A DNA stretch of 64,000 nucleotides. Source: Lophium mytilinum (Eukaryota). Both the position numbers and the translations under genes were made by a program. Position 1 is the stretch's first letter, and the number at the start of each line of letters is the position of its first letter. This document shows, piece after piece, positions 4,539-23,656 of the stretch. The notes below the pieces were generated by a model. That model searched no databases. It was not told where the DNA came from and saw only the letters and a program-made list of their open reading frames with translations. The stretch is from contig MU004182.1 of NCBI GenBank assembly GCA_010093605.1, forward strand, positions 2,651,195 to 2,715,194, given 5' to 3'.

Positions 4539-7500
4539 TCAGAAGTGCCCAATCACCGCCCGAGCATCCCCATTAGAATCCATCACCGTTTCTTGCTCCG
4601 TCTGCGTCTCCATCCTTACATGCCGCGGCTGTATGCTCTGTTCCGTAAACTGGTGCCAGCAATTCGGCGCCTGGAGGATATATTTCGCCATCGCGATCCT
4701 GAAGCGGTTACGATAGTCCTTCGGCGAGGTAATAGTCGGCTTGTTCTTCCCGCGATCTTTGATCCAGGACTCGAGTTTCTTGTCCCAGGTGTAGGTACGG
4801 ATGCAATCTGGAATGAGAAGTTAGTAAGTCTAGTAATGTTTGAAGAGACTTTTAAACACGATGAAGAAAGGAGAGTGCTTACCAATAATGCCGACGATGA
4901 TTTCTCGGTGCGTGTCATCGAAGCCGGCCATGAGACTGTAGTCCATTACGTTTTGCTGGGATAGGAAAAGCGTGTCATTCCAGACGCATGCTTTGAGGAG
5001 CTTCTTTGTATGCTCCCGCACGAAGATGGGTGTTTCAGAGTAGATTATGTCCACTAGATTCTCATCTAGCAGGACCTCATCGCGCTCTCCAGTGCTCTGG
5101 ATCTTCCGATTTCGCATAGAACCCTTGAGATCAAATCGCCGGTTGGGTTCGCGGTCGTAGAAGAGATTCTCCATGACTAGCATGTACCAATCGAAGTCTC
5201 GGCCAGTGGGTGTCTTGATCTGCACTTGGAAGAGGCCAAACATCTTTGCGATCACGGTCGGCAATCCCTCGAAGAGATTCTTGTGAGTGAAGGCGAAGTA
5301 GTTTGGCGCGAACCGGAAAAAAGAGTTGACTTCAATTGGCGAGAGAGACTTCAAGACGAAACGGTCGTCCAGTGTCTTAAGGAACAGCGATTTGCTTTTC
5401 CCGCCCTTAGAGTCCCATTTAGAACATCGGGACAAAGACTCGACAAAGCGATCAGCAACTCCGCACTTCCGGCGAAGCGCGTCGAATGACTCGGCATAGA
5501 AGATCTTGCATTGCGCTTTCACGCCGCGGTTAGTGAAGCCGTAGCGAATGTTCGTGTTTGCTTGGTGCAGTAGGTTCCGTTCAATAGAAGCCTCGGAGTC
5601 CGCCAGACCGTTTTGTCCCATCGCCTTTTCCATCTTGCTCTGCTCCGTGCGGAAACTGTGTAACTTGGTGAGATAGTCTGGGCTTGACAATGCTAGCGCA
5701 ATGATGGAACTGGGCTCGTCCTCGCGAACAATGATATCGGAGTCTTCCCACACATGCTCAATCTGGGCGAACGGGTAATCAAGTGGAGCCCATCCACTAG
5801 CAGAACGTTCAGACCAAAAGCTTGTCAGCATTCTCATCAAAGAGGTTTTCTCATGCTTCGGCAACTCCAAGCTAATATCGAGCTGCGACTCTGTTGGCGA
5901 CAACAGTTGGGACTCGTCGATACTTTCGGGGAGTCGTAAATCGTCCAAGATGGTGTTCTCAATGTCGCTAGCGTCGCCCTCGGCGTCTGAGGTAGGATGG
6001 CTGGTGTTCGCTCCATGTTCTTCGCCTTCAATAGATGGACTAGTGGAACTCTTTGGGCGCCGTTCGTCCATAGGCGATTCCGTTCCAGTCGTTGGTTCCG
6101 TAGTTCCAGAGAAACTGCTGTCCTCGAGTGTGCTGTTGTCTGTACTAAGCCGAGTAGGAGTAGCTACATTAGGGTCCTCCTCCGATTGGCTCTGTTCCTG
6201 TATAGCGTCATGTACGTCGTGATACACTTCTACTGAAGGTTTCGAAGACGCCAGAGGGTATGCCCGCGCTTGACGGCTTCGCTCTGCTCGAAGGCGCCTC
6301 TCACGAAGGCGCTCTTTCTCAAATTCGCGACTGAGCTGTTCAAAGTGCTTTGCCAATGTAGATACCCTAGACTCATTGCGCTTTCGAGGGACAGATCTGG
6401 GAATCATTGAATGGCTAGAAGACTTTGAAGCCTTAAAGGAACCTAAGCCCAGGCGTTCTGTCATTCTCTTTTCAAGAGCTTTCGCTGATTCACTAAGGCT
6501 CATCTTTTGCGGATCTCCTTTGCTGGTTCCAATAGACGTCGTGATACTGCTGGTTGAACCGTTACCATATTGGTCTCGCCGAGATAACCCCCCCGGCTGC
6601 GATTGGGTCCGGGTCATGGGTGGTGGTTTTAAAACACCTTCACGCCGAATGGTGTCGACTAAGCGAGGTATCTTCGATTCAATGATGGACCCAGACGGAA
6701 AGCTACTGAGTTCAGCTTGGTGCATGCTGTCCACAGCTTCAGATATAGAGTTATCCAACGGTTCTGGCTTGATAGACGGCGAATTAATTGTAGGCGCTAT
6801 TTCTTGCGACATGCTAGATTCTGGTGATAAGGTAGGTGGATTTCCATCTTGTGTAGCCTTCGGAGATGATGTGCTCTCTCGGAAATCAGAAGACACTGCA
6901 AGATCTAGATGACGGACATCTTCTCTCTCAAAGGCTTCAATGGAGGTTTGGAGAGGCATATCCGAATTGACGCTTATAGAGTTACTGCGGGAACCGGTCC
7001 CTTGGCCAACGGGAGTCGAGGTTTGTTCTTCTCCCAGCCGTGGGCCAGGTGTTTGATCTTCTTCGACTACTGATGTGAGCATATCCCTAGCATGCTCTGG
7101 GGACATGTGAGAAGGCATAGGATTCAAGGAGAGTGTCTCGCCCTTCTCGCGCAGCTCTGGGCTTGACAAGGCTTCATTTCCCTCGTCGACAGATGCTAAT
7201 GAGCTCGAGGACTCATCACGCTCGAGGAAGATCTTCTTCAATTGAAGGGCAGCAAGTCGCCTGATGTCTTTCTCCGAGGGGAAGAACTGATGCTCAAACT
7301 CCGCAAAAGCATCGTCCCACGAAATGGCTTTCTCTTGGATAGCTCGAATAGCTCTGTTGAGAGGGATGATTTCGTAGTATCTGGAGCACATGTACTTGTC
7401 TTGCAGTTTCTGTCGTAGCCAATCATGTTCCTCACTGGCTCGCTTCGTCAGTTTCTCAACCTCAGCTCGACAGGCTTCAATCTTCTCTGGTATTACACTT

Positions 7501-10500
7501 TCGACATGAATACTCTTGAGACGTGTTTTGACGGAGGTCATGAACCTGTCTAGCCGATCCTCTATCTTGAGAAACTGTTCGTTCTTCAGGCGGAGATCGC
7601 TATCCACCTTCCACGTCACTGTCGGTCGGGGTACTATGACTTCGTAGAGGTGGACGTTGTCGTATTGAATCTGAATCGCGACGTTGTTGAGTCCGAAGTA
7701 TCTGACATGGTCCCGATGAATGTCATGCGGGCATATATCAGCACGAGGATGTAACTTCGTGCTCCAGAACGTAAGCTCCAAATACTTTGCAAAGGAGTAT
7801 TTCCATGTGTTCTCAGACATAGGAATGACTTGAGTCTCGATAGCACATTTTCGGCAGACGCTCCACATCAGAATAGTACCGTGGAGACCTCGAATCTTAG
7901 AAGGATATTTCTTGACGATGACACTCATTTGGCCCTCTCCGTGAACGTATTGGCGATGATGGTCCAACATTCTCTTATCACACCCGTTCACGTCGCAGAC
8001 CGTACTCGCCCCGTGGCAAAGGTCTTCAACGTACTGACCAAGCGTACAGTCAGGTGTGAAACCATCATCGTAGTCATGCTCATGGTAGAATGCCAAAGCG
8101 ATGATTTCGGGACCAACGCACGGAGTGGATGTGACTGAGTTGACTACGCTGTATAAGACTGCAATCTTCTGATGGTTGAACGGATCGAAGAGATTCAGGT
8201 TACTAGACACGTAACCCTCCCATTGCCGTTTTTGAGTCTGGTATGCATGCAACGCCTTATCAAACTCGGCAGCATGGACCGCGTGCAGAAAGTCGCGCAC
8301 TTGCTTGGATGCCTGTTCCAAGACGGTGTGTACCATCTCGGGTTGGACCAGCTCGAACTCCTCGGGGTCGTCTGTACCCGCCTTCTCATCATCCGTGGTA
8401 TATCGATCGCGGAGATTCTTCAGATATCCCACTTTTCGTTCCTGCTCACGAGCCTGCATCAAGAGATACGGCTGCATGAATTTTACGAAGGGTGAGGCCG
8501 AAAGTATCTTTGTTTGATGTGTCTCGACCATTTCGCCATAGAATGAGGGCAGTGGAGCATCATCTGGAACAGTCAAGGCAGTTGCAGAGTTGCTCGTGAT
8601 GCTGTTCTTGGCTGATATCGGGGCAATTACTACGCTGTCGTTTGTGTCGTCTTCAATGGGTTGAGATTTGGCGTCGGAAGCTTCGTTTGTCGTTTGTGGT
8701 GAATGATCTTCCGGTGCCGCATTAACGGAGTCTCGAGAAGTGTCAGCGATCTCCAGAGCAGGCTTAGATGGATCCTTTTTCCCTGCTAGAATCGTCCCTC
8801 CCATGGTAGTGGATGGTATGAGAACGAATTCGTCTCGCATAAGACAGGTTTCGAGCTTGAGATTGTAGACAACAAAACAGAGAAATTCAGCAATCTTCTT
8901 CAGAGCCTTGAGCGTGTCGATCGTAGCTCCGCGTAATACAATTGTGCACCCCAGATCGCTCTGACATCCGGACAAGTAGATGTATGTCTTCTTCCTGTTC
9001 TCGTGGACATACGTTTTGACATCGAAGCTTTGGCATCGTCCGAGATGCGAAGGATCTATATTGAGTTTTTCCACCGAGGATATCATCCGCGTCTGAGTAC
9101 ACCTCGAGACAGCGTTGAGAACCGTTGGCTTGACGTTATATGCCACCGCGATGTTAGCCTCTTCGAGGAACTCTAGCGCGAGGCCAGCAACATTGCGTTG
9201 CACGAGCAGCACGGAAGGCTGGAGGGCAGCTATCCGGTCAACTAGGTTTCGTAGATATTCCCTTTCTTGCGCAATGACTGGTTCTAGGCTCATAAAATGT
9301 TGCTGGTGGCGCGCGTACTCTATCGGAAATGTGACTATCAGAATACGGGGATGCGCAATACTCCTCGGCATACTTTTCAAAGCTACTTTCTTTGTGAAGA
9401 CAACGCCCGACACGTACGAAGTGTCTCCTGGCCTTCCCCCAGGGATCTTCTTTAGTTTGATGTAATGCCGAATGTCGATATCGTCGTTATGTTGGACATC
9501 AGGATTGACGTCGTCCGTGCATTGTAGCAAAATGGGTAGGAGAGCTTTTTCCCATCTTGTCATATTTGGGATGGAAGAGTCATGCAGCATTTGCTTCAGT
9601 AACTTTCTGACATGGTGCAAGCTTGCTTGGTTGAGTTCAACAACAGGCGCATTGCCTCCTCGCATTGATGAGCTACGTGTCATTTGGAACCCCACCGTAG
9701 GCAGAGGAAGCATTGGAGGGTGGGGAGCTGGCGGTTGCCCAATGCTTCCAGCGAGACCAACTCCGAATGATCGAAGTAGGCTGTTGCTTTTCGCTCTTCG
9801 CGGAGATGGGCGCGGTCCAACTGTGCTGCTGATGCTCATGTTCCGTCTTCTTGAGTGTCGATTCATATGGCGGCTTGCAATGCTTGCCGTGTCCGTGTCT
9901 CGTGGAGGTCCCACTATGCTCCTTTCGCCGAGTCTAGACTTCCCCTTCCGCATAGCTGCCAAGAGACTGCCAAGCCCACTTCTTTCACTCTCTCCACTTG
10001 CATGAGCAGGCGAATCTGCGTTGAGAGTTGCGAATATGCTGGCTGGCTCTTCCTCGCTTGAATCTTCGTCAGACATGAAAGCTGCGAGATCTGGATCGAT
10101 GATATTGTCGTGATGGAAAGCCGGAAGCGTTGAGCGGTTTCGATGGTCTTCCGCATCGTGACGATGAAAAGGAGCTCGCTCATCGTATCGAACATGTCGC
10201 ATGTGCTGATGACGGGAAAGATGGCGTTTATGACTTGAGGATCGGGGTCTCCCGCTAAGGGATCGGAGTGATCTGGAGGAGCTGGGTCTAGCTAAGATCG
10301 GTGGTGCTCCAAGCTCTATGACTGCAGATCGGCGCTTCTTCTCTCCTCCAGCTTTTCGCGACATCGGGATGCTAATTGTAGGTGTGCCGATCTTGGTGTG
10401 GTCACTCTCAGTTGTGTCAGTATTGCGGTCTATGTCGTCCATGAAGCCTAAAGTTTCGTCTTGTTCATATAGAGAATTACGATCTGCCTCATCGGTGTAT

Positions 10501-11936
10501 ACCGAAGAGTCGTCATCATCTCCATAGAGGAGAGCCTCACAAGGTTTGCAAACTCTCAGATTGCCAGACTGGCCGAACAACTTGCCTGCTACTAGTGAGG
10601 TGCACTTGGCGTCGAATATCTGACCGCAAGTTCGGCAGTGGTGTTTTCTTCTGAAAGTTGAGAAAGCATCGCCGCAGTAAAAACAGTCCTTGGCATTCTC
10701 GTCCCGCATCCAAAACTCCTTTGGCAAGATCTTCCTGCGCGATTGGGAGAAGCCATTATTTGGAAGGTTTCTAGAGAGTGAACTCGAAGGTCTCGCCCGA
10801 GGATGTTCTTCTACGGATGGAAAGCGGGGGCTCCGAGCTGGAGCGACGGTGGCAACCGAGCTAAGACCGTCAGATGAAGATGTCCGCGAGTGTCGGTATC
10901 CTGGTAGGTGGGACTGGCTGATCTGTAGCATGGGAGGCCTTTGGGGAGCTTGAAGAGGTTTATATGTAGGGTCTGTGGCTAGCTTGTCCAGGACATGATC
11001 ACCGATCTCAGTCTCGCCTGCGCCTTTGGAGGGTAGTTTGCCAACTACAGTTAGAGGCTGACTGTTATCATCATCTCTTGGAGAAACGATTCTTTGCAGC
11101 CCTGAATCGCCTGTTTCGGTATCGTTGGGACTTTTCTGGGATTTGGACAATTCATAGAAAGCTCCTCCGTCAACCATCACTAGGTCATCGTCTTCAGTAG
11201 TATCACTCTCGTCATCCCGAAGGTCCATGTCGCCTCTAGATTGGCGGAAAGGCTCTTCACCGCTGGCTACATAGCATGCTCCATCGGCTGTGTTGGGTGT
11301 TCCAAGACCAGCTGAAGACGGATGCTGAGGACTGTCAAGTCCGCGGCCATTTTTCAATCTGAAGACGGAGCCTGCCGGGCTCCGTGACCCGTTGTCATTA
11401 TCTTTGTGTAGTTTCGACGATTCGATGCTAGCTGCCAAAGAGCCTCTCGATTTGTTTGTTGGCAAAGCCGGCTTCGGCCCGTTAGACGACCCTCTAGACG
11501 CAGCGGCTAGGCCCGAGTTGTTCGATTCTCTGGATGGAGGAAGTGGAATATCAGGGAAGTTTGTGACTGCGGGCGATTGCAGTCTTGACGAGGAAAAGGA
11601 TACTACAACCGGGGAGGAGACGGCAGTGCCTGGGCTCTTTGGTGTCTGCGAGGGCTTCGGTGTCCGTGTATTGGCACTGTTGATGGATATGTCATCGGGA
11701 GTCTCACTGCTATCCTTTGTGCCTCCCACGCTCGCCTTCAAGCGACTGTAGAGCCCACTGAAACCGCCTTGAACTAGGTCGATGCCCTTCGCGTCTCCGC
11801 CCGACGACGAAGGCGGCGAGGCAAAGTCGCCAAAGGTTGTGAGGCTCTCGGTGCGTGACGCAGAGCTGTGTATTTGGGCTAGGGGATCAGACACGGAGCC
11901 GCGTCGAGAGCGGCGTGTAGCGTCTTTGGGATTCAT
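4539..11936 (-). CDS. FAB1: 1-phosphatidylinositol-3-phosphate 5-kinase (Fab1/PIKfyve)
   Basis: FYVE finger (CFYC...[14 protein letters not shown]), CCT/TCP1-like domain ([10 protein letters not shown]) and PIP-kinase domain (GGKSKS..FLKT, FDLKGS, MDYSL). Intron 4808-4882 (GTAAGC...CTAAC...CAG) restores [20 protein letters not shown]; stop at 4539. Confidence 0.97.
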
Positions 11937-12655
11937 GGAGGCTTAAGAGGGTGTCTTTCGGGTGGAGCGCCGCCAGAGGTCGACCAGGCGTGGAGGCTTC
12001 GGAGCCCTGTGCGGGGAGGAAGCGGGCATGAGCTCGTATACATAAGGCATCAGCGTACTAAGGCCATCGTCGGCCACATGACGGAGGTGTCGGCGGCGTG
12101 AATGGGGCGTGCAAGAGGAGTGCGGCGTGGGGCGAGCGTGGTGCTCTGATGGGAACCGTCTTTGACAGATTCTAGTGGGGTCTTGGAAGCAGCAGAATAG
12201 GTCGATTGGTAGGGCAAGTGCGTATAATGGTCAAGTCGCAGTAGTTCGAACAAACATCGATGCTCGGGGAGCTTATGACGTTGCCAAGCTACACTATCAT
12301 TTTATGCGCTATCACTGCCGCCAGCCGCTGAGCAGGTGACAGCGTGGGGCGTGTCGGGATTGTTTGATCAGCCGCTATAACTACACCTCTTCCGTCTCGC
12401 GTGCCTTAGGCATACACGAGATGAGCCTTTGGAAGAGGCTATTCTTACTTCAAGCCCAGCTGTATCCCCAGTGTTATAATTATTGATATCTTTATTACTA
12501 TCAGACGCCTGGCCGAGTCACCGTCGGTGCGGTGTTTTCGGCGCACGCCCCCGCTCCCCACAAAACGCGAGGTCGCGTCGCCTCCGTCCTCCGAACTTCT
12601 TCACCCCACTGCAACACCTTTTCCTGCCTTCTTGCCCCGACCGGCATGCCTCCCG

Positions 12656-15600
12656 ATGGCCGACCTCCTCACTCAGTGGCTCTCTCGAGACATTGAAAAG
12701 GAGTTAAGCAGTGGCATAGACTGGCTCAAGTTAGCAGAGAAGGCGAAGCGCGAAGAAGAAGAGGATGGAGGTGAGCGTCCCCGGAGCCCTGGGTCGAGAC
12801 AGGCCAGGAAGAAGAGGAAGAGACTAACAGACATTCTAGGAAAGCTACCATATGAAGACGACGGGAGCAACCTCCGAATACCCGTGAGCCACGATGTTGA
12901 GAAGAGACGCTGTGTACAGATCCAAAAGGTCCTCTCCCTTACTTCTGTGCCTTGCGCCAAAATTAATTGCCCCACAATCAGATTATTCACCTCAAACCAC
13001 GTTTCGAGGTCATGCTATCTGACAGTTATGCCTCGATTCCTGCCAAGCTCACTTCCTCTTGCGTTAAACACTTCGAGAACCAACACAAGCGGAGAATCTT
13101 TGACGACACGGAATACGGCATTCTCTCAATCCGCGAGTTCAATATCGTAGCAACGCCCTATGGAGAACCGACTTGGCAACTTTCGCTGCTGGTAGACAGC
13201 ATGGAATGGCAGGGAGACTTTGAACGTCAGTTCGGGCATCCAGAGTCGATCCGCAAGAACCCAGATGTTGAAATGCAACTGAAAAAGCTGTCGGACTTCA
13301 GGCAGTGTGGGAATGGAACTACAACGGTGCCTGGGGAGACGGCCGGTACACCTGGCAGTCGACATCTTGAACCATCACCAGAGGCAGCAGAAGCCATCGA
13401 AAATGATGATATGGAGTCCTCTGCGCTGTTTACTCAGATGCAACCATCCACGCAGCGGCCAATTCCACGACGAGTAGAGTTTGGCGCAACGGAACGACAC
13501 AGCGTTGGGGGTGTGAACCGCCACAGTCCAACCCTCGTCGGCAACGTACGGAGCGCTCCTATGATTCAGTATCATGACGAGCAGCCTCGCAAAGATCCAA
13601 AGGTATCCAAAGTTGATACGCTCCTAAGCCTTCTACGCGCTGGAGGTCAAACGTCTCACAGAGCCAATGACTCCTCTAACGTTCCAAATGCAAACCCGCT
13701 ACGCAATGACTTCATGCCTCTTTCGGAAGAAAACGCCAATGGCTCCGTGCTTGCCGGTAGGAGGTCTTCAGGAAGAGGCGCCAATGTTCAACGTAGCCCC
13801 TCTGTTCAGTCCATACCGATACGTAGCTCGCCTCCGAAAAGCAGCTCTCCTCCCAGTAGACCATTTTCGAATGAAGCACACAGGGAGGTGCCACCTACCC
13901 AACGGCTTTTGGATGAGGTTCTGTCCGTCCCCGAGACGATTGGTATGCCTGCCTGGAAATATGGTTATTCAAAGACACAAGACCAATGCAGTTACCCTTT
14001 AGGCCAAGCAGCCATACTCGATCGGGACACTTCGCTTTTCCCCTCACTCCCGGGAAAAACGTTCCCTCGTCCAAACGTTCCTACACCTTTGCTAGCGTCG
14101 CTCAATAAGCGGGCAGACGAGGAACGCAGCCAGGACTCAGGAGAACAGGACCATGCCTCAAATATTTCGGAAGCTTCTGATGTTGAACAAGGATATGACT
14201 CTGAATATGACTCCTCTTCGAGCGCATCGGGCTCTTCGGTTTCAGCAGAATCAGCGATCTCTGGATGGGCGACAACTCCACCTCGACCTCCCACCCACCT
14301 GCTAGCTGGGTTACCTCCAGACAGCTCCGCTCCAAGAGTAGAAACACCCCCGAGGAATTCTCCCAGAGAGATGTCTCTATCTTCCACACACCCCCGGACA
14401 GCGTTGCCACCGGACAGTTCTGTCCCACAAGAGGATTCGCCTGTAAGGCGGGGTCCCAGTGGGTTGCCCCAAGAGACTCCAATCGAACTCATAGAGTCTG
14501 ATTCGGACGGTAGGGGAGCGCCCGGCAGGACTCAGATCTCAGTTTCTGAACCCGAAAGTCGAGTAAATCCAGCAATTCCATCCTCTCCACCCGAGCCAGC
14601 ATCACAAGCAAATCAAACAAGTTCGCCCGAACGAATAGACATCAGCGACAGTGAGGAAGAGATGGAGTTCGCCGTGTCTGAAGTACTAGAGGTTGACAAG
14701 GTAAACACTCAATCAGCATCTCGGGCAACTTGTACCTCACCACACCACCGTGAGGCTCGAGGCGTTCCAGAACTTCAAGTGAAGGAGACTCCTCAGCTTG
14801 AAGGTCATCGGAAGATACAGCGAGACCTCACCAAGCCTTCCTCTTCATGGTCTCCTGCTCGACAACGGTCTAGTGGACAGACAACCTCGTCCACTTCTGT
14901 AATTCCCAGTACCTATGTTGAACCCCGAGGGCAGCTCAACGCAAGGCCTATCGCTACCAAGAATAATTCGGTGATGATCGATCTTTCGTCAGACACGAAT
15001 GATCTAATGATTGATGAGCAATTAAACGCGGAAATAAATGCTGCCTCGCAGCGTCTGCCACCTGAGGTCCAAAGCCCATCGCCCGACCGGCCCAAAGCTT
15101 TGTCCACCTCGAATCACTCGCCGACACTGGCTCCACACGCATCGAGTAGCAACCCATCTTCGCTAGTGAAGCGCAAAGCTGCCGATCTTCCCACTGGAGT
15201 GAACAGCAGCAAAAAGCCTAGATCGGTTGGTCTTGGGCTTCCACGGGACTCAGATATGGCAAATGGAGATAACAAAGCACCTCCTATGACAATACGAGAA
15301 CAGAGACGCCAGAAATTGAACAGCTACAGCACGACAAGTCCAATACATGCTGAAGAACATTTACTACCGTCTCCCAGGTTCGGTACTAATCGTAGGGAAT
15401 CAAATAGACTTGTCGACAAGCACATTTCAACGCCGAATCATCGACCTTCTCCCGCGCGCGCTCTACCTCGGTCTAATAATACTTCGCCGAGGGACAGACC
15501 GCGAGACAGTGAGCGTGGGCTGCGTCATGATAACAGGTCGCCCGCCGTCGAGGGAGGCCCTTCAAAGACTGCCGCCCACATGTCTTCGAGGCCTGCGAAC

Positions 15601-16624
15601 CGTTCTGCTGTAACGGAAAACGCGTCAACTAATCCTGGGAAACCTCCGCAATCACCTAGCGCGGTCGTGTTTTCGACATTCTCTCAAGCCTATCCTGAAT
15701 ACAAGGGGACAATGAAGCAATTCGTAGGCATGTGCAAACAAATACAGAAGCTGGAAGACGAGAGAAAAAGACTGCCCAAGTTTTTGTGGGATGATTACGT
15801 GATCCGATACGAGATGGAATTCGTTGACTACCGCAACGAGTGCTTTGAAAACGGAGATGAACCCGTTTCGTACTATGAGTTTTATGACTCTATCAACGAG
15901 CACAAGTTCAAGAAACAGGTCCTTGACCCAGAGGGTCTCAAGCTGGTACTCGAGCAAACTTCAACCACTTCAAACTCAACCGCGTTCACCCTTCCCGTTC
16001 GCCGCCCACCGCCATCTCCCGCGGAGTCCAGCAACCCGAAGCGGACTCGCAAATCTCTTCCTTGGCAGCCCTCAAGTACGGCGCCCGCACTAGAAGGTGG
16101 GCGCCCTCGAATGTCACTGCCCTCTACTCCATCCCAGCAACCAAGAAGTAAGCCAACCCCGTTTGTTGTAAGTGCGGTCCAGTGGCATTGTGATGCGAGG
16201 CGAGTCGCTAACCAGATGTCAGGCCAAGGACAAGAACGATCGTTCCAAGTTGAAGGCCAGAACACATGGGCGCGTGGACGAGGAGGCTCACCGCGAGGTG
16301 AGACCCGAAACTTATTCACGGGCGTATGGGCAAGATCGCCCCAACGCGACAACCACGACCCATGGTCAGGCGGACGAGAGAGACCTTCTCCGAGGGTCTG
16401 TAGACAACCACGAGTACAAGGACGCGGTCGAGGCCGGGGATGGCCCTACCGGGATTGAGATGCACGAGGATCCGGATTCGAACTTCCGGCAGTTCGTGCG
16501 TGCGTATGCGTCTCTACCCGCTGTGAAAGGGCGATTGGGCGAACCTGATAGTGAGGGCTTTCTGCGGCCTCGGCGTGCGAAGCGGATTGATGTGATGGCG
16601 TGGCCGATTGGGTTTAAGCGCTAG
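12656..16624 (+). CDS. TPP1/Tpz1/Est3-type OB-fold telomere protein with long Ser/Pro-rich disordered region
   Basis: Intron 12929-12981 joins ...VQIQK to IIHLKPRFEVMLSDSYASIPAKLTSSCVKHFENQHKRRIFDDTEYGILSIREF, resembling the TPP1/Est3 OB fold (LSD motif, F-E-xxx-RRI helix). There is a folded segment FSTFSQAYPEYKG...FLWDDYVIR and a last exon ending FRQFVRAYASL...IDVMAW. 3' splicing is ambiguous. Confidence 0.75.
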
Positions 16625-17447: not shown

Positions 17448-20400
17448 TCAGTCCTTCGCCTTCTTCCTCCCCTTCTTCTTCTCATTGGTCACCTCAACAA
17501 TCTTCTCCACCAACACCTCCGTATCCAACAGCGGCTCCAGCCCTAAGTAAGAGGACCTTCGGTTGCCCCTCAGCGCCGGCGTATTTGGCGGCACTAGAAA
17601 CACACTCGACCTCTGCCGTTTCCCCCTCTCCGCGACTTCCTCTGCCGAATCTTCACTTTCTATGCCAAATCAGCTCGAGGCCTTAAGGGGTCTCGTTAGT
17701 GCATCCGAGGTCACTGACCTACCCTTCGCCGCTGCCGTCTTCTTTGCTTTCGTCGTAGTTGGCGACTTTGCTACCTTCTTTGCTACGGCAATGACTTTTG
17801 GTTTCACGGGCGCCTTCTTCGATACACCAATTTCTTTGGCTGGTGCTGCTTTTTTGGTAGGTGCTGCTTTCTTGACCAGCGTTGCTTTCTTGGCCGGCGT
17901 TGATTTCTTGGCCGGCGTTGCTTTCTTGGCTGGTGTCGTTTTCTTGGATGGTGTTGCTTTCTTCGCCGGTGCTGGTTTTTTCGCCGGTGCTGCTTTCTTT
18001 GCGGGTGTCGCCTTCTTAGCCTTCTTCGCCACCGGAGAATTCAGCTCAGAGCTAGAATCGAAGAGGACTTTATCGGCTTGAAAGGCCTCGTCGTCTGGGG
18101 CTTTCCGTTTACGGCCGCGAAGTGCGGGTGTTGGTGTTTCGGGTGTTTTTGCACGCGTGGTTCGCTGGCCCCTTAGTATAGCCGGAGGTGTTGACGGTGT
18201 GGGTGGGGGAGACGGGGTTACGAGTGGTTTTCTTTTACGAGGAGTTTTGGGCGTTGAAGGCTCAACTAGCGTTGACTCAGCGGCTTCGGATTTCTTGGTT
18301 GTTTTCTTCAAAGCAGCTTTCTTGGTCCTCTTCTTTGTTAGTCCCGGGGAGGTCTCGGAACTTTGCGTTACGAGACTAGCTTTGCGTATTCTAAAAGCTG
18401 CGTTTGGATGATCTGCCGGGTAGCGTTTCACGAGTCGGAGGACGGGTGAAGGCGTTCCAGGAGAAGGAGTAGGAGATTTCCTGTACGTTGCGTCCACCTT
18501 CTTGCCCCTTTTTGTAGCCTTCTTGACGCCGTTGGACGCTGCAGGGGCAGGCTCAAGTGTCAATTTCTTAGGCCTTCCCCTTTTCTTCGGTGCTGCTTCA
18601 CTCGCTCCTTGAACTTTCTTCAAGCTTGACCTCGTAGGAGAGGTTGGAGAATCCACATCCCCATCTTCGGCCTCGGGTTGATCATTATATCCGACTCGTC
18701 TCTCTACCGTGTTTTCAGAGAACTTGACTTTGGAGCCCTTCCTATATCCACTCGGCGATTCGACGATTACTCGGTCCCAGCCTGCTTCCATGACCTGCGA
18801 GTCAATCCTGTGCTCTTCGTAGTGCTCAAACATGCTTCGTAAACCTACGCCTTCAAAAGAAACTTTGCACACCAAGCAGTTATTCCCTAAGTCAGGGTGC
18901 AGTCGTCGAACGAGCGAGGCGTACTCCTCTCTCAATTCCACTTGTGGCATCTCTTTTATCTCGCGGTCAAGGTCGGAGGGATCGTCCTCGAATCCGCGCT
19001 CCAAGACATCCGGGTCTTGCCCTGGTTCGGCGGAAGAGGATCCTTTGCGAGAATTTGACTGCCGGTGTGGAGCTTGTGAAGCTGAGCTTAGTTTCCGCTG
19101 GCTAGTTCTACGCGAAGACGAAACTGGTTCTTCTTCTTCTTCTTCTTCTTCTTCTTCATCCACATTTTCATCGAAATCGAACAATGAGTCATGACTTTTC
19201 TCCGACACTCTGCCGTCTGAGCCCGATACTCTACGCGACTTCGAAGATCGATTCGAGGCCTGTGAAGATACACTTGACCTTCGTTGACTAGCAGGCCTGC
19301 CGATAGATGAAGCTATTTCGTCGACTTCGCCCTCTTCTAGGGAATTGTGGCTGGCTCGCGACGCTCTGCGGCCCGAGGCTGATGAATTCCTTGACTTTGA
19401 AGATCGACGCGAAGCCTGTGATGCTGAACTCGACTTTCGCCGACTGGTGGCTTTACCCATAGATGACGCTGTTTGATCTTCTTCGTCGATCTCGCCTTCT
19501 TCTGATGCCATTTGGCTGTCCTGCGACACTCTGCTACCGGAGCTTGACTTTCGCCGTTTTGCAGGCGGACCTGATGCTTGAGGATTCGACCTCGACCTTC
19601 GTTTTCTGGAGGCTCCAGGCGTGGATAGCGTTGTTTCGTCATCGTCTACGACAACTACTGTCTCTTCATCCTCTTCATCAACTATTGGCCAGTATATATC
19701 GTCGGCATTGTCGGTCCACGGCTCGTCCCCCAGGATTGGAGACACCGCGCCGCCTTGCGCTGCGCTTGGCTCATACTTCAGCGAAGCGATCTTCCGGGCA
19801 ATCGAGTCGGGTCGGACAGCCCCCAAGATATGTACTGGTGGAACTTTCGGGTATTCGTTTTTCCCATCGAGCCAGTTGGCCTCCATGAATTCTGCGTTCC
19901 CAGGGCCATAACTTCTAGCCTTTGCAATTGCCCCATGGATTCCGAACTTGTACAGCTCAAATGTAATCAATTCCATCTCGGAATTAAGATTAGAGGATTT
20001 AATGATCGTTGCCGCTGGCATTTTACCCGCTAGCCTCGGTATCCTTTTCCGATGCTCATCCAAATTCACTGATGCTGCAACGTTATCATCGCGTTTCACT
20101 CTTCCCGCCCCTCGTGCCAGCAACAGGTTTTCGCCTAAGGTAGACAGCCGATCTTTCAAAGCCTTCCGGTAGTACTCCGAATCGGGGTTTACGTACGTAG
20201 GGTCGGCCCACCCACCAGGCCGTCTGAAGAAGTAAAATGAGGGAAGATTGTCTCCTCTAAACGTAATATAAAACAAGTCTTCTCTCATCGGAGGGGGCCC
20301 GGGTTCCACGTCACTAAAATCGTATCCGGTACCAAGAAGAACCGGCCCCCAGGCACAAAGGCCCCCTCTTTTCGGACCCCGGACCCCCTTGAACATACGA

Positions 20401-22202
20401 GCAGCAGCCTTACGATCCGGATCCTCATTCCACGCCCAATCGTAGGGATGGAAGAATAAATGACCAGTATTTACGGCAAGCTGTGTATATTTATACCAGA
20501 AGTCGCCGCTTTCGATTGTTGCATCTCTCAGCTGATCTATAAGAATTCCGTCGTGAGCTGCGTCGACTTCTTTTGAGGTAAGTTCAGGCACATTGCTACG
20601 TCGGATGCTGGCATTGCTACGTCGGATGCTGGCATTGCTACGTCGGATGCTGGGTATGGCCCCCCAAGTATACTCCCGTACACTCGGCGTCATGAATTCC
20701 AACGTCTCGTCTGGGGATGTACGCAAGACTCTGTCCCATATCGGCCAATCAAGCCCGTTTGGTGGCACATCAAAGATATTGGCGTCATCGTCAAAAGGTT
20801 CTTTCTTTGGCCAGTGCGTAAAAGTGATTCTTGGTGGTGTAAAAGGAGGGAAATATGCCCGGGAGATGCCTACGTCCTCTGGGTCTGGCCCTGCAGGAAC
20901 GCGTTTAGGCGGAAGGTCGAGGTGTTCAACCACGAGTTTGCATTTCTCGCCAAACCAGCCATTTTTCCTTCGCGCTACATAGTCGATCACCGCTACACTA
21001 CGATGCTTCCCTCCTCTGGAGCAGAGTCCATACCGGACCGTAGCAGTGGTTTTCCCACTTGCCCTGGCTTCCTTTGATTTTTCATCTCGTAGGCGGCGAA
21101 TATCCTCCCAACACCAATTGGCGACGTCTTGCAGTCTGTATGGTGGTTTGTTTGGTTCTCTATACTCCAGGCGCGAGCGTATCGGTGTATCAAGACCAGT
21201 AAGATGTTCAGGCACAGGCGATCTCCGATCGGCCTTATCACCCTCTGGACGCAGGCCGTTCACATATTCTACTGGTCGTAGATCTCCATCTTTGATTTCG
21301 TACCACTCGAGATCCGGTGGCACTTTTTCTTTAGTCCATGTGTTTGTTCTCCTTGTAGCGAACGAGAAGAGAAATAGTTCAAAGTCTATGTCCGTGTTGT
21401 CTACTGCTTCCTCTGTGACCGCAGTCTCTGGCGGGTTACCATCTTGTGGTGGCTGTTTCGATGACCCCGCCTTCGTCGTTTTCGATTTCGGCTTGTCAAC
21501 TTTCTTCGGGACGAATTTCCCTTCCCGTAGGTCCTTTTTGTACTGCGTTAGGAGGTCCACCATGGGGTCACTCTCTTTGCTGACTGGTAGGCCCTTTTCC
21601 TGGCACCACCCTTTTAACGTCCCTGCTGTCATTTCGCCCAAGAACTTCTTATTGCGCACGTCGCTTTTATCTGGGAATATTGTGGCATCCGAGTCTGATC
21701 TATCTGACTCGGGTTGTGGGTCCTCCTTGTCTCTTTGTTCAAGCGCGGTTATGGTTTTTACCTTGTTATCGCGAAGAGCTCTCTGATTCTTGCATCCTCT
21801 CTTCTTGGCCATTTTGTAGAGTATGGGCTGACGCCTTTCCCAGTAAAACTTTCTGTGTAGCCTTCGTGCTTTCCTAGGTCCGTCTTTGGAGCTACTCCTT
21901 GTCTCTTTCTGCGGCGGCGCAGAAGTATCAGTTTCATCTCCACTCTCAGCACTGCTGGTGGGTGTAGGAGGTTTTCTCCCTGGCTTTGTCGGCCTCTTCC
22001 CCCTCTGCGACGGCGCGGGAGCAGCTGCCTCTTCGGTACTTTCATCTTCGCCGCCTTCGTCTTCGGCATCCTCGCTAACTTCGTCTTCAGCATCCTCGCT
22101 ACCTTCGTCTTCGGCATCTTCGCCATCGTCCGTGAGTTTAGGCGGTGTCTTTGCTACCTTTGCCAGCCTCTTCCCCTTCTGTCGCGACGCGGGAGTATTG
22201 GT

Positions 22203-22235
<33 letters not shown>

Positions 22236-23009
22236 TTCTGCTTCCTCGCTACTTCCGTCACTCTCTGTAGGCTCAGATCGTGTCTTCTCCGGCCTTGTGG
22301 GTGCCTTCGTCTTCGGCGGCGACTTGGGAAGATTTGACTCATCACCACCTCCAGGGCTACTTTCCTCACTGCTTTTCTCGCTCTCCGCGGGCTTAGGCGG
22401 TGTCTTTGCCGATTTTGCGGATGTCTTTCGCTTCTGTGGCGACGCGACAATTCTCGTATTATCACCACCTCCATCACTACTTTCATGACTACTGTCCTCG
22501 CTACTTTCGAAGGGCTCCGGGGGCTCAGACGTTGTCTTCGATGACTGTCGGCTCCCTTTCCTGGTCCCGGATGACGTCGGATCATTTTTCGACGCACCGC
22601 TCTCTTTCGGAACTGGAGTAGCACACTCGGGAACCTCTTCCTCGTCCTCTGGGCGTTCCTCCGCAGAATCGTCGTCCTCGGTCGTCGGCACTACCGCAAG
22701 TGTTGCTCGTCTTCGGTTTTCCGCGCGTATTCGCGCTATGCGAACGGCCTTGGTTCCCGACCAAGCTATTCCTAATTGTTCCGACCTTATTCTGAGAAGC
22801 GCGAGGGTCCAGTAGTTAAGGTCTTCGAACTCGTCACCCGGTCCAGTTCCAGTTCCTGGTTGCGTCAGGACTGCACCCGCAGCCGCACCTTGAGCCCCGC
22901 CTCCTCTTGCTCCTCCTCTTCCACCACGCCCGCCTCCACGCCCACCTCCGCGTCCACCACCACGGCCCCTCCCCGGATTTGGTGCGGTTGCTTTCGCTTT
23001 CGGCCCCAT
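17448..23009 (-). CDS. Large multi-module putative chromatin/RNA-binding protein (RGG, SAP-like motifs, RapZ C-terminal-like domain, C2H2-like finger, AT-hook, H1-like tail)
   Basis: Open frame from ATG 23009 (MGPKAK...). Intron 17660-17722 (GTAGGT...GCTGAT...TAG) adds a final exon ESEDSAEEV...KKKGRKKAKD*. Motifs: GRGRGGGRGG; LNYWTLALLRIRSEQLGIAWSGTKAVRIARI; LTGLDTPI...CSRGGKHRSVAV...VVEHLDL; CLVC-x14-HYEEH; KKRGRPKK; KKAxPA repeats. Confidence 0.85.
17840..18030 (-). repeat. Degenerate 18-bp coding tandem repeat encoding a histone H1-like KKAxPA array
   Basis: Encodes KKATPAKKAAPAKKPAPAKKATPSKKTTPAKKATPAKKSTPAKKATLVKKAAPTKKAAPA; + strand units resemble tttcttggccggcgttgc. Confidence 0.85.
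19128..19157. repeat. (TTC)10 microsatellite encoding poly-Glu
   Basis: Direct reading; E10 in the minus-strand protein. Confidence 0.95.
20591..20653. repeat. Perfect 3 x 21-bp tandem repeat (cattgctacgtcggatgctgg), in frame, encoding SIRRSN(A/V) x3
   Basis: Three identical contiguous copies read directly. Confidence 0.95.
22203..22235. repeat. (ATC)11 microsatellite encoding poly-Asp
   Basis: Direct reading; D11 in the minus-strand protein. Confidence 0.95.
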
Positions 23010-23656
23010 GGGAGCGTTCCGTCCGTTTGCTAATTGGCGCGTAAGATCTATTATCGAGTAGCCCAAATCTCGTGTCAAAAATTAAAACTAAAGCGCAACT
23101 TCGAACTCGAATCAAAGAGCCCAAAGAACGGCGAACGACGCGCTCAAAAAGAAAATCGATGTACCAGAAACCGCTCAAAGAACTTTCCCATCTCTCGTCT
23201 TTCAAGTTCCGCATCTAGTAATGCCCGGCCTGCCCACCCTAAGTTGTGCTCGAGGTTTCTTTGTTCCCTCGCAGGGGCCCACACCCCACTCGGCGGGTTG
23301 GAAGGAGTGCATTGACGGGTATGGTGTGATGATCATTGAAGTTAAAGGAATGGCGGGTTGATGGTTGGGGCACAAGGGGGACAAGAGGGTCGCATGCCGG
23401 AGTGTGGGTGGTGGTGGTGGTGTAATTTACAACGCCCACCACACCACCTATGCGATTGCGACAGTACACCCATACTCACAATTGACTTAAGAATACAACC
23501 TTATGGAGCGATATGCTCATTCATGTCTATTGTTCTCATGCTAGATATGGGTATTTCTAGGCCGCACAAAACGTTAACCTAGTCTCTAAACCAAAAAGAC
23601 CATCGAAATAGCAAAACTCACAAACCAGAAAAGGAGGAGAAAGAGGAGAGCATCAC

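Follow-up and report, generated by a model that had tools for sequence, protein, structure and literature searches.

The stretch of DNA analysed here (hereafter the window) comprises 64,000 nucleotides of the Lophium mytilinum genome (assembly GCA_010093605.1, contig MU004182.1, positions 2,651,195 to 2,715,194), has a G+C content of 51.9% and contains no N. Its minus strand carries an open reading frame (ORF) of 1779 codons, and within the encoded protein lies a segment that resembles the C-terminal domain (CTD) of the Escherichia coli protein RapZ (YhbJ). A first-pass annotation had drawn attention to this resemblance through a 158-residue peptide and four ordered motifs. The minus-strand translation of 20913-21386 does yield that peptide, as residues 542-699 of the ORF, with FELFLFSFATRR, HLTGLDTPIRSRL, VRYGLCSRGGKHRSVAVIDYVA and KLVVEHLDL in the order given, and the E. 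coli motifs quoted beside them are found in the translation of K-12 rapZ. Judged by its sequence, the segment spanning residues ~539-704 is a full-length and highly diverged homologue of the RapZ-CTD, set within a Pezizomycotina protein of 1779 amino acids (or ~1830). The homology is very probably real, and lies outside the boundary curated by Pfam.

The sole relative found is an uncharacterized protein of 1813 amino acids from Mytilinidion resinicola (Dothideomycetes), BDZ99DRAFT_567102 (P0003). The two proteins share the same architecture, running from an arginine-glycine-glycine (RGG) N-terminus to a lysine/alanine/proline-rich (K/A/P) tail, and over their 1759 aligned positions 50% of the residues are identical. 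In the RapZ-like domain the identity is 42%, below that of the whole protein. A word-index search returns this one match among proteins of 978-3114 amino acids, and no relative among those of 30-977. A profile of the two fungal sequences finds nothing even at E ≤ 10 among proteins of 94-305 amino acids, stand-alone fungal RapZ-C proteins included. The peptide has no match at E ≤ 1 in 50,697 phage records (tblastn), and a six-frame scan of the window with three hidden Markov models (HMMs) detects no second RapZ-like segment.

No Pfam family other than PF22740 (PapZ_C) matches the window protein; in the orthologue this family ranks first of two. In the window protein the domain scores 21.2 bits (E 3.5e-4) and the whole protein 16.3 bits (E 0.011); in the orthologue, which matches just as weakly, the domain has an E of 5.3e-5 and the whole protein scores 18.3 bits (E 0.0027). 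The NCBIfam RapZ equivalog NF003828 matches the window protein with 16.7 bits (E 0.004), without reaching its cut-off of 244 bits. When the window domain is compared directly with E. coli RapZ by BLASTP, the two align collinearly between TGLD and GGKHRSV, scoring 27.3 bits (E 1e-4). To assemble a reference set of bacterial domains, PF22740 was run against a sample of 81 genomes belonging to the same phylum as an Enterobacter, and 67 of them matched. E. coli RapZ itself, scanned against genome contigs, gave 80 near-identical Enterobacterales loci, which served only to pick out a genome. The 30 best-scoring loci were retained and cut at E. coli residue 155, the locus identical to that of E. coli being swapped for the E. 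coli protein. The resulting profile, narrower than Pfam's since all 30 CTDs come from Pseudomonadota, gives 15.7 bits for the window domain and 19.9 bits for that of Mytilinidion, with 4.8 bits for the best of 2000 shuffled sequences.

The alignment of the two fungal domains was then compared by hhalign with that of the 30 bacterial CTDs, giving a probability of 97.1, an E of 5.3e-11 and a score of 66.8 over 128 columns (CTD columns 2-130). Shuffling the columns 200 times yields a mean of 13.0 (standard deviation 2.8, maximum 29.0), and reversing the alignment yields 13.3. The real score is thus ~19 standard deviations over the shuffles. MAFFT, run on 31 sequences (29 bacterial and two fungal), arrives independently at the same register as hhalign, in which the fungal domains have 7, 13 and 10 residues inserted relative to the bacterial CTDs. 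Reciprocally, an HMM built from the two fungal domains matches every one of 16 ORFs from metagenomes that encode RapZ or RapZ-C, with 12.7-24.6 bits. These loci come from a metagenome scan made only with the bacterial pattern CTGGxHRSV, which returned 16 loci of bacterial type and no fungal intermediates. In the ESM Atlas, 28 of the domain's 30 neighbours are PF22740 clusters, and the first match scores 0.91 with 205 shared features.

A chance or convergent resemblance around a short GGKHRSV-like motif, with no RapZ ancestry, would account for two aspects of these data. Every single-profile score falls under its curated threshold, and the HMMER alignments of both fungal proteins to PF22740 span only the C-terminal half of the profile. 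What such a resemblance leaves unexplained is that hhalign and MAFFT align the entire domain in an identical register, that F167, D182, G200 and H276 (E. coli numbering, used throughout) are conserved far from the loop, that the score exceeds the column shuffles by so much, and that each orthologue matches PF22740 independently. This explanation is therefore considered very unlikely. The assignment to the RapZ-CTD made in the first-pass annotation is upheld by BLASTP, by our own HMM, by hhalign with its shuffles and by MAFFT.

The same annotation noted the absence of the N-terminal P-loop domain of RapZ, and this is borne out. Up to an E of 100, an HMM of that domain matches neither fungal protein (the E. 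coli control scores 199.9 bits), and the Walker A motif [AG]x4GK[ST] is absent from both. Two of the metagenomic loci, L115:1807-3279 and L117:133-1578, contain ORFs of 491 and 482 amino acids in which the CTD stands at the C-terminus, after ~350 residues unlike RapZ.

The E. coli domain offers a template for reading the fungal one, and for it we draw on three papers. The RapZ pocket is made up of H190, T248, G249, H252 and R253, and binds malonate or sulphate in the place probably taken by the phosphate of a ligand (PMC5737377). The CTD dimer is formed through the strand YVFD 179-182, and D182A abolishes it (PMC5737377). On its own, the CTD binds glucosamine-6-phosphate (GlcN6P) (PMC7073468). 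In the cryo-EM complex the pockets contact backbone phosphates of the small RNA GlmZ, and the basic or pocket residues in contact with GlmZ are K170, R184, H190, K194, R196, R211, R238 and K251; the variants H190A, G249W, R253A, K170A and C247A/S are inactive (PMC9841335).

Ten residues are invariant in all 31 aligned sequences: F167, D182, G200 (the glycine of TGLD), G246, G250, H252, R253, S254, V255 and H276. The G-x-H-R-S-V loop and the C-terminal histidine are thus identical in the bacterial and fungal rows. Twenty columns are invariant in the 29 bacterial rows; 12 of them are kept by the window domain and 10 by both fungi. For the dimer strand the window has W-(YE)-I-K-D, the orthologue W-E-I-S-D, and D182 is unchanged in both. 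What has been kept is the glycine-rich loop of the E. coli sulphate/malonate/phosphate pocket together with the aspartate of the dimer strand. It had been expected that orthologues would conserve TGLD and GGKHRS. This holds only loosely, as G200 and HRS are retained and Mytilinidion reads SGLE and EKGRHRS.

We propose, with a probability of roughly 55%, that the domain is a phosphate- or anion-binding RapZ-C fold, possibly self-pairing, and that it and the adjoining conserved region together constitute the folded core within a disordered protein that acts as a scaffold for nucleic acids. The domain would still fold around the anion hole and bind a phosphate group, belonging either to a phospho-metabolite or to the backbone of a nucleic acid. 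Its counterpart of the YVFD 179-182 beta-strand may also allow it to pair with a second copy. The surface by which the enterobacterial domain recognizes GlmY/GlmZ has been replaced in the two fungi. The host, to go by its composition, would be a nuclear scaffold associated with nucleic acids, with the RapZ-like domain and the adjoining 400 residues as its only folded core.

Several observations weigh against this proposal. The PF22740 scores of both fungal proteins (21.2 and 18.3) are under the Pfam gathering cut-off of 27 bits, and RapZ is not found when the sequences of the PDB are searched with either the peptide or the profile of the two fungal domains. When 1.84 billion representative proteins are scanned with the 158-residue peptide alone (phmmer), only the orthologue is obtained at E ≤ 0.001 (E 1.7e-25). 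The pocket itself is incomplete. H252 and R253 are kept, H190 is replaced in both fungi (by Tyr according to MAFFT, by Glu according to hhalign), T248 becomes Arg in the window and Glu in the orthologue, and G249 is retained by the window domain alone, the orthologue having Lys. Between the equivalents of Gly246 and Gly249 the loop is two residues longer (G-LCSR-GG against G-CT-GG in bacteria), and not one residue longer as had been annotated. With these residue changes and the extended loop, the pocket may be reshaped or lost. F181 of the dimer strand is also replaced (K/S), and no SAP, zinc-finger, AT-hook or histone domain of Pfam matches the host protein. Finally, AlphaFold2 (AF2) run on the two fungal sequences alone gives a predicted local distance difference test (pLDDT) score of 40.2, which is unusable, and with the alignment that yields a better model, 29 of the 31 rows are bacterial RapZ.

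Because of these 29 rows, the match of that model to RapZ indicates compatibility only and is not independent evidence. The mixed alignment gives a pLDDT of 75.7 and a predicted template modelling score (pTM) of 0.75. With this model, Foldseek returns RapZ entries alone at E ≤ 1e-3 (best 5o5q_A, 3.8e-4). VIA-align of the model (20871-21401) gives a Z of 14.2 for 5o5q_A, with a root-mean-square deviation (rmsd) of 2.6 and 127 aligned residues, and a Z of 13.9 for 5o5s_A over 123/123 residues; the rmsd to the RapZ structures ranges from 2.5 to 2.6, and the next unrelated match has a Z of 6.2. Next to RapZ, the model most resembles PRL (Z 6.2), followed at a Z of about 5 by VSP and many DUSPs and at 4.1-4.5 by phosphofructokinases (PFKs). 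DUSP/PRL and the PFK subdomain that binds fructose-6-phosphate are distant fold neighbours, their Z values being in the "common arrangement" range, and they have no match at the sequence level. The resemblance of the RapZ-CTD to the PFK subdomain has been published (PMC5737377).

The replaced residues are also what would be expected of a structural relic, a RapZ-C fold that no longer binds a ligand and serves as a folded spacer or a self-association unit in a disordered protein. In addition to H190 and T248, C247 and most of the basic surface residues have been replaced, the loop has gained two residues, and the two fungi are less alike in this domain than over the whole protein. The invariance of D182 in the dimer strand fits a self-association unit as well. 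Yet the two fungi share H-R-S-V, G250 and H276 with all 29 bacteria despite an overall identity of ~20%, and it is difficult to account for this unless the pocket itself is under selection. A relic is possible, though rather unlikely.

Most of the basic residues that contact GlmZ have been lost. At the seven basic positions K170, R184, K194, R196, R211, R238 and K251, the window and the orthologue have R/E, D/V, V/W, E/E, Y/D, K/H and K/R, respectively. A like residue is thus kept by the fungi, among the eight contact residues, only at K251 and in part at K170 and R238. With so few of these contacts kept, small RNA recognition in the style of RapZ is unsupported, and the domain is unlikely, from its residues, to be a GlmZ-type RNA binder. 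This bears on the idea of a sensor for an amino-sugar phosphate of the GlcN6P type, or for a small RNA, that would couple a metabolite level to the handling of chromatin or RNA in the nucleus. Such a sensor would be in keeping with GlcN6P binding by the isolated E. coli CTD (PMC7073468), with the two metagenomic ORFs of 482 and 491 amino acids that place a CTD behind an N-terminus foreign to RapZ, and with the RGG and serine/arginine (SR) stretches of the host. On the other hand, the GlcN6P site of RapZ is itself called "yet uncharacterized" in PMC9841335, pocket residues H190 and T248 are not kept, and neither are 5-6 of the 8 RNA-contact residues. We regard the sensor as unlikely.

Cysteine-dependent phosphatases of the PTP type are recognized by a catalytic Cys placed five residues before an Arg (C-x5-R). 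The first-pass annotation had suggested such a pocket in the fungal domain, and an active site of this kind, built on a C-x5-R-S loop, can be set against the alignment. The bacterial CTGGKHRS has the C-x5-R-S spacing, PRL, VSP and DUSP come directly after RapZ among the structural neighbours of the model (Z 4.5-6.2), and C247S inactivates E. coli RapZ, a result for which the authors raise a catalytic role (PMC9841335). In the window, the loop Cys falls within the insertion, leaving a C-x6-R spacing; the sole orthologue has Phe at this place, in the loop FSEKGRHRS; and Pfam gives no phosphatase family at E ≤ 1. As the Cys is shifted in one fungus and missing from the other, a cysteine phosphatase is extremely unlikely, and this candidate was rejected. 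As a separate matter, the phosphatase neighbours and the spacing of the bacterial loop may be relevant to why C247S inactivates E. coli RapZ itself.

The fungal domain and the E. coli RapZ-CTD (5O5S, 5O5Q, 8B0I; PF22740) thus align collinearly over their full length and share G-x-H-R-S-V, D182, G200, F167 and H276. Unlike E. coli RapZ, the fungal protein has no N-terminal P-loop domain, its domain carries the three insertions and the longer loop, and H190, T248, C247, R184, K194, R196, R211 and R277 are not kept. Moreover, the domain is placed inside a eukaryotic protein of ~1800 amino acids. Another parallel is provided by RapZ-C-only proteins of Ascomycota, which appear in the ESM Atlas as a cluster of 1042 members of ~150 amino acids, 10% of them with PF22740 (feature score 0.90). 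Like the window protein, they have a RapZ-C-like domain without the NTPase. They are small and single-domain, whereas the window domain is embedded in mid-protein; this comparison was made through the Atlas cluster entry. These Ascomycota genes are already in the databases, where they sit unstudied, and full-text searches of an open-access library yielded no description or study of a eukaryotic RapZ-C domain. What is new is the architecture: a sub-threshold RapZ-C domain within a protein of ~1800 amino acids, in two fungi.

All work on the RapZ-CTD has concerned enterobacterial RapZ, in which it is a platform for small RNA and GlcN6P. The two fungal proteins reveal which residues survive without the partners of RapZ, namely the NTPase domain, GlmY/GlmZ and RNase E. 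The survivors are the H-R-S-V anion loop, the aspartate of the dimer strand and the C-terminal histidine. Because these survive, the comparison supports phosphate binding as the core, ancestral function of the RapZ-C domain, and they define a minimal group of residues to mutate. In practical terms the reach is limited, with the gene recorded in two Dothideomycete-type genomes and a host protein that is otherwise uncharacterised. More speculatively, a lineage-restricted nuclear scaffold of fungi might have captured a bacterial-type RapZ-C sugar-phosphate pocket through which it senses a phospho-metabolite, for instance an amino-sugar phosphate of the chitin precursor pathway, and might thereby alter the way in which its RGG, SR and presumed AT-hook segments engage RNA or chromatin. 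This is quite unlikely; if true, such a metabolite-reading scaffold would be the eukaryotic counterpart of the mutually exclusive binding of metabolite and RNA by RapZ.

Outside the domain, the host protein is mostly of low complexity, with the RGG N-terminus, an acidic Ser-rich stretch (pI 4.3), an SR-rich stretch and the K/A/P-rich tail (Lys 18.9%, Ala 15.6%, Pro 13.3%, pI 10.8), the last conserved in both fungi. By composition and regular expressions, the RGG, Ser-rich, SR, C2H2-like, KKRGRPKK and K/A/P features are all kept in the two proteins (Table 1). The RGRP core of KKRGRPKK is presumably AT-hook-like. A Pfam search at E ≤ 10 of residues 1-110, 375-530, 1330-1480 and 1480-1779 returns only two weak and unrelated matches. 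SAP domains had been considered by eye around residues ~60-100 and ~440-490, and these candidates were dropped when Pfam gave them no support. The "chromatin-type" label given earlier to the protein is based on composition, the RGRP core, the K/A/P tail and the RGG repeats, and no Pfam profile match backs it. These features suggest a nuclear protein associated with nucleic acids, and do not prove a chromatin protein. The conserved region that directly follows the RapZ-like domain is similar to P0003. Neither Pfam nor the PDB sequences (best E 0.53) offer a match to this region, the Atlas offers none that is usable, and it may represent a folded domain, so far undescribed, that in this protein invariably goes with the RapZ-like one.

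Table 1. Features of the RapZ-C-containing gene, in window coordinates
Feature	Position	Strand	Residues	Remarks
RapZ C-terminal-like domain	20898..21395	-	~539-704	contains 20913-21386; hhalign, MAFFT, PF22740 below cut-off
Loop GLCSRGGKHRSV	20994..21029	-	661-672	corresponds to E. coli G246-V255, with anion-pocket residues H252/R253
TGLD motif	21189..21200	-	604-607	corresponds to E. coli T199-D202; SGLE in the orthologue
Conserved region	19695..20909	-	701-1105	~400 amino acids, directly after the RapZ-like domain; similarity to P0003
Main exon/ORF	17673..23009	-	1-1779	1779 codons; start ATG 23009, in-frame stop 17670-17672
Probable second exon	17448..17659	-		69-residue C-terminal tail (frame 17659-17451) matching the C-terminus of the Mytilinidion orthologue
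C-x2-C-x12-H-x4-H motif, C2H2-like	18810..18878	-	1378-1400	regular expression only; also in the orthologue
RGRP core of KKRGRPKK, presumed AT-hook-like	18570..18581	-	1477-1480	regular expression only; also in the orthologue
21-bp tandem repeat x3, perfect	20591..20653	-		encodes IRRSNAS x3, inside residues 701-1105; TRF
18-bp unit x10.6	17831-18021	-		in-frame, encodes the K/A/P tail
(TTC)10	19128-19157	-		in-frame, encodes a poly-Glu run
(ATC)11	22203-22235	-		in-frame, encodes a poly-Asp run

The stop-to-stop frame around the main ORF comprises 1803 codons (17670-23081, minus strand). The stop codon that closes the long ORF probably sits inside a short intron, for which two joins were translated. 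With a 63-nucleotide intron (17660-17722) the protein reaches 1832 amino acids and ends in the tail of 69 residues resembling that of the orthologue. A 59-nucleotide intron (17660-17718) leads to an early stop and a protein of 1765 amino acids ending in ...KGRK. The contigs from three coded runs cover the gene at an identity of at least 99%. A single 57-letter contig from one of them, X1, skips 17660-17718 with GT..AG on the minus strand; this is a weak hint for the shorter intron, as its sides of 27 and 30 letters fall short of the 31 letters required for bridging, and that X1 is RNA is itself a guess. Whichever 3' intron is chosen, the RapZ-like domain is unaffected.

At the (TTC)10 and (ATC)11 repeats, contigs are interrupted in each of the three runs. 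The IRRSNAS x3 repeat is missing from the Mytilinidion orthologue and has one unit (21 letters) fewer in an X1 contig; its length varies between isolates without a change of frame. The neighbouring genes are an ordinary Pezizomycotina set: a Fab1/PIKfyve-type kinase, a TPP1-like protein, a member of the M28 peptidase family, RRN9, HET and MFS. The first of these, on the minus strand at 4833-11942, is a lipid kinase of 2370 amino acids with FYVE, Cpn60_TCP1 and PIP5K domains, and the second, on the plus strand at 12967-16455, is the 1163-residue product of an ORF with a shelterin TPP1/ACD-type domain (E 2.4e-10).

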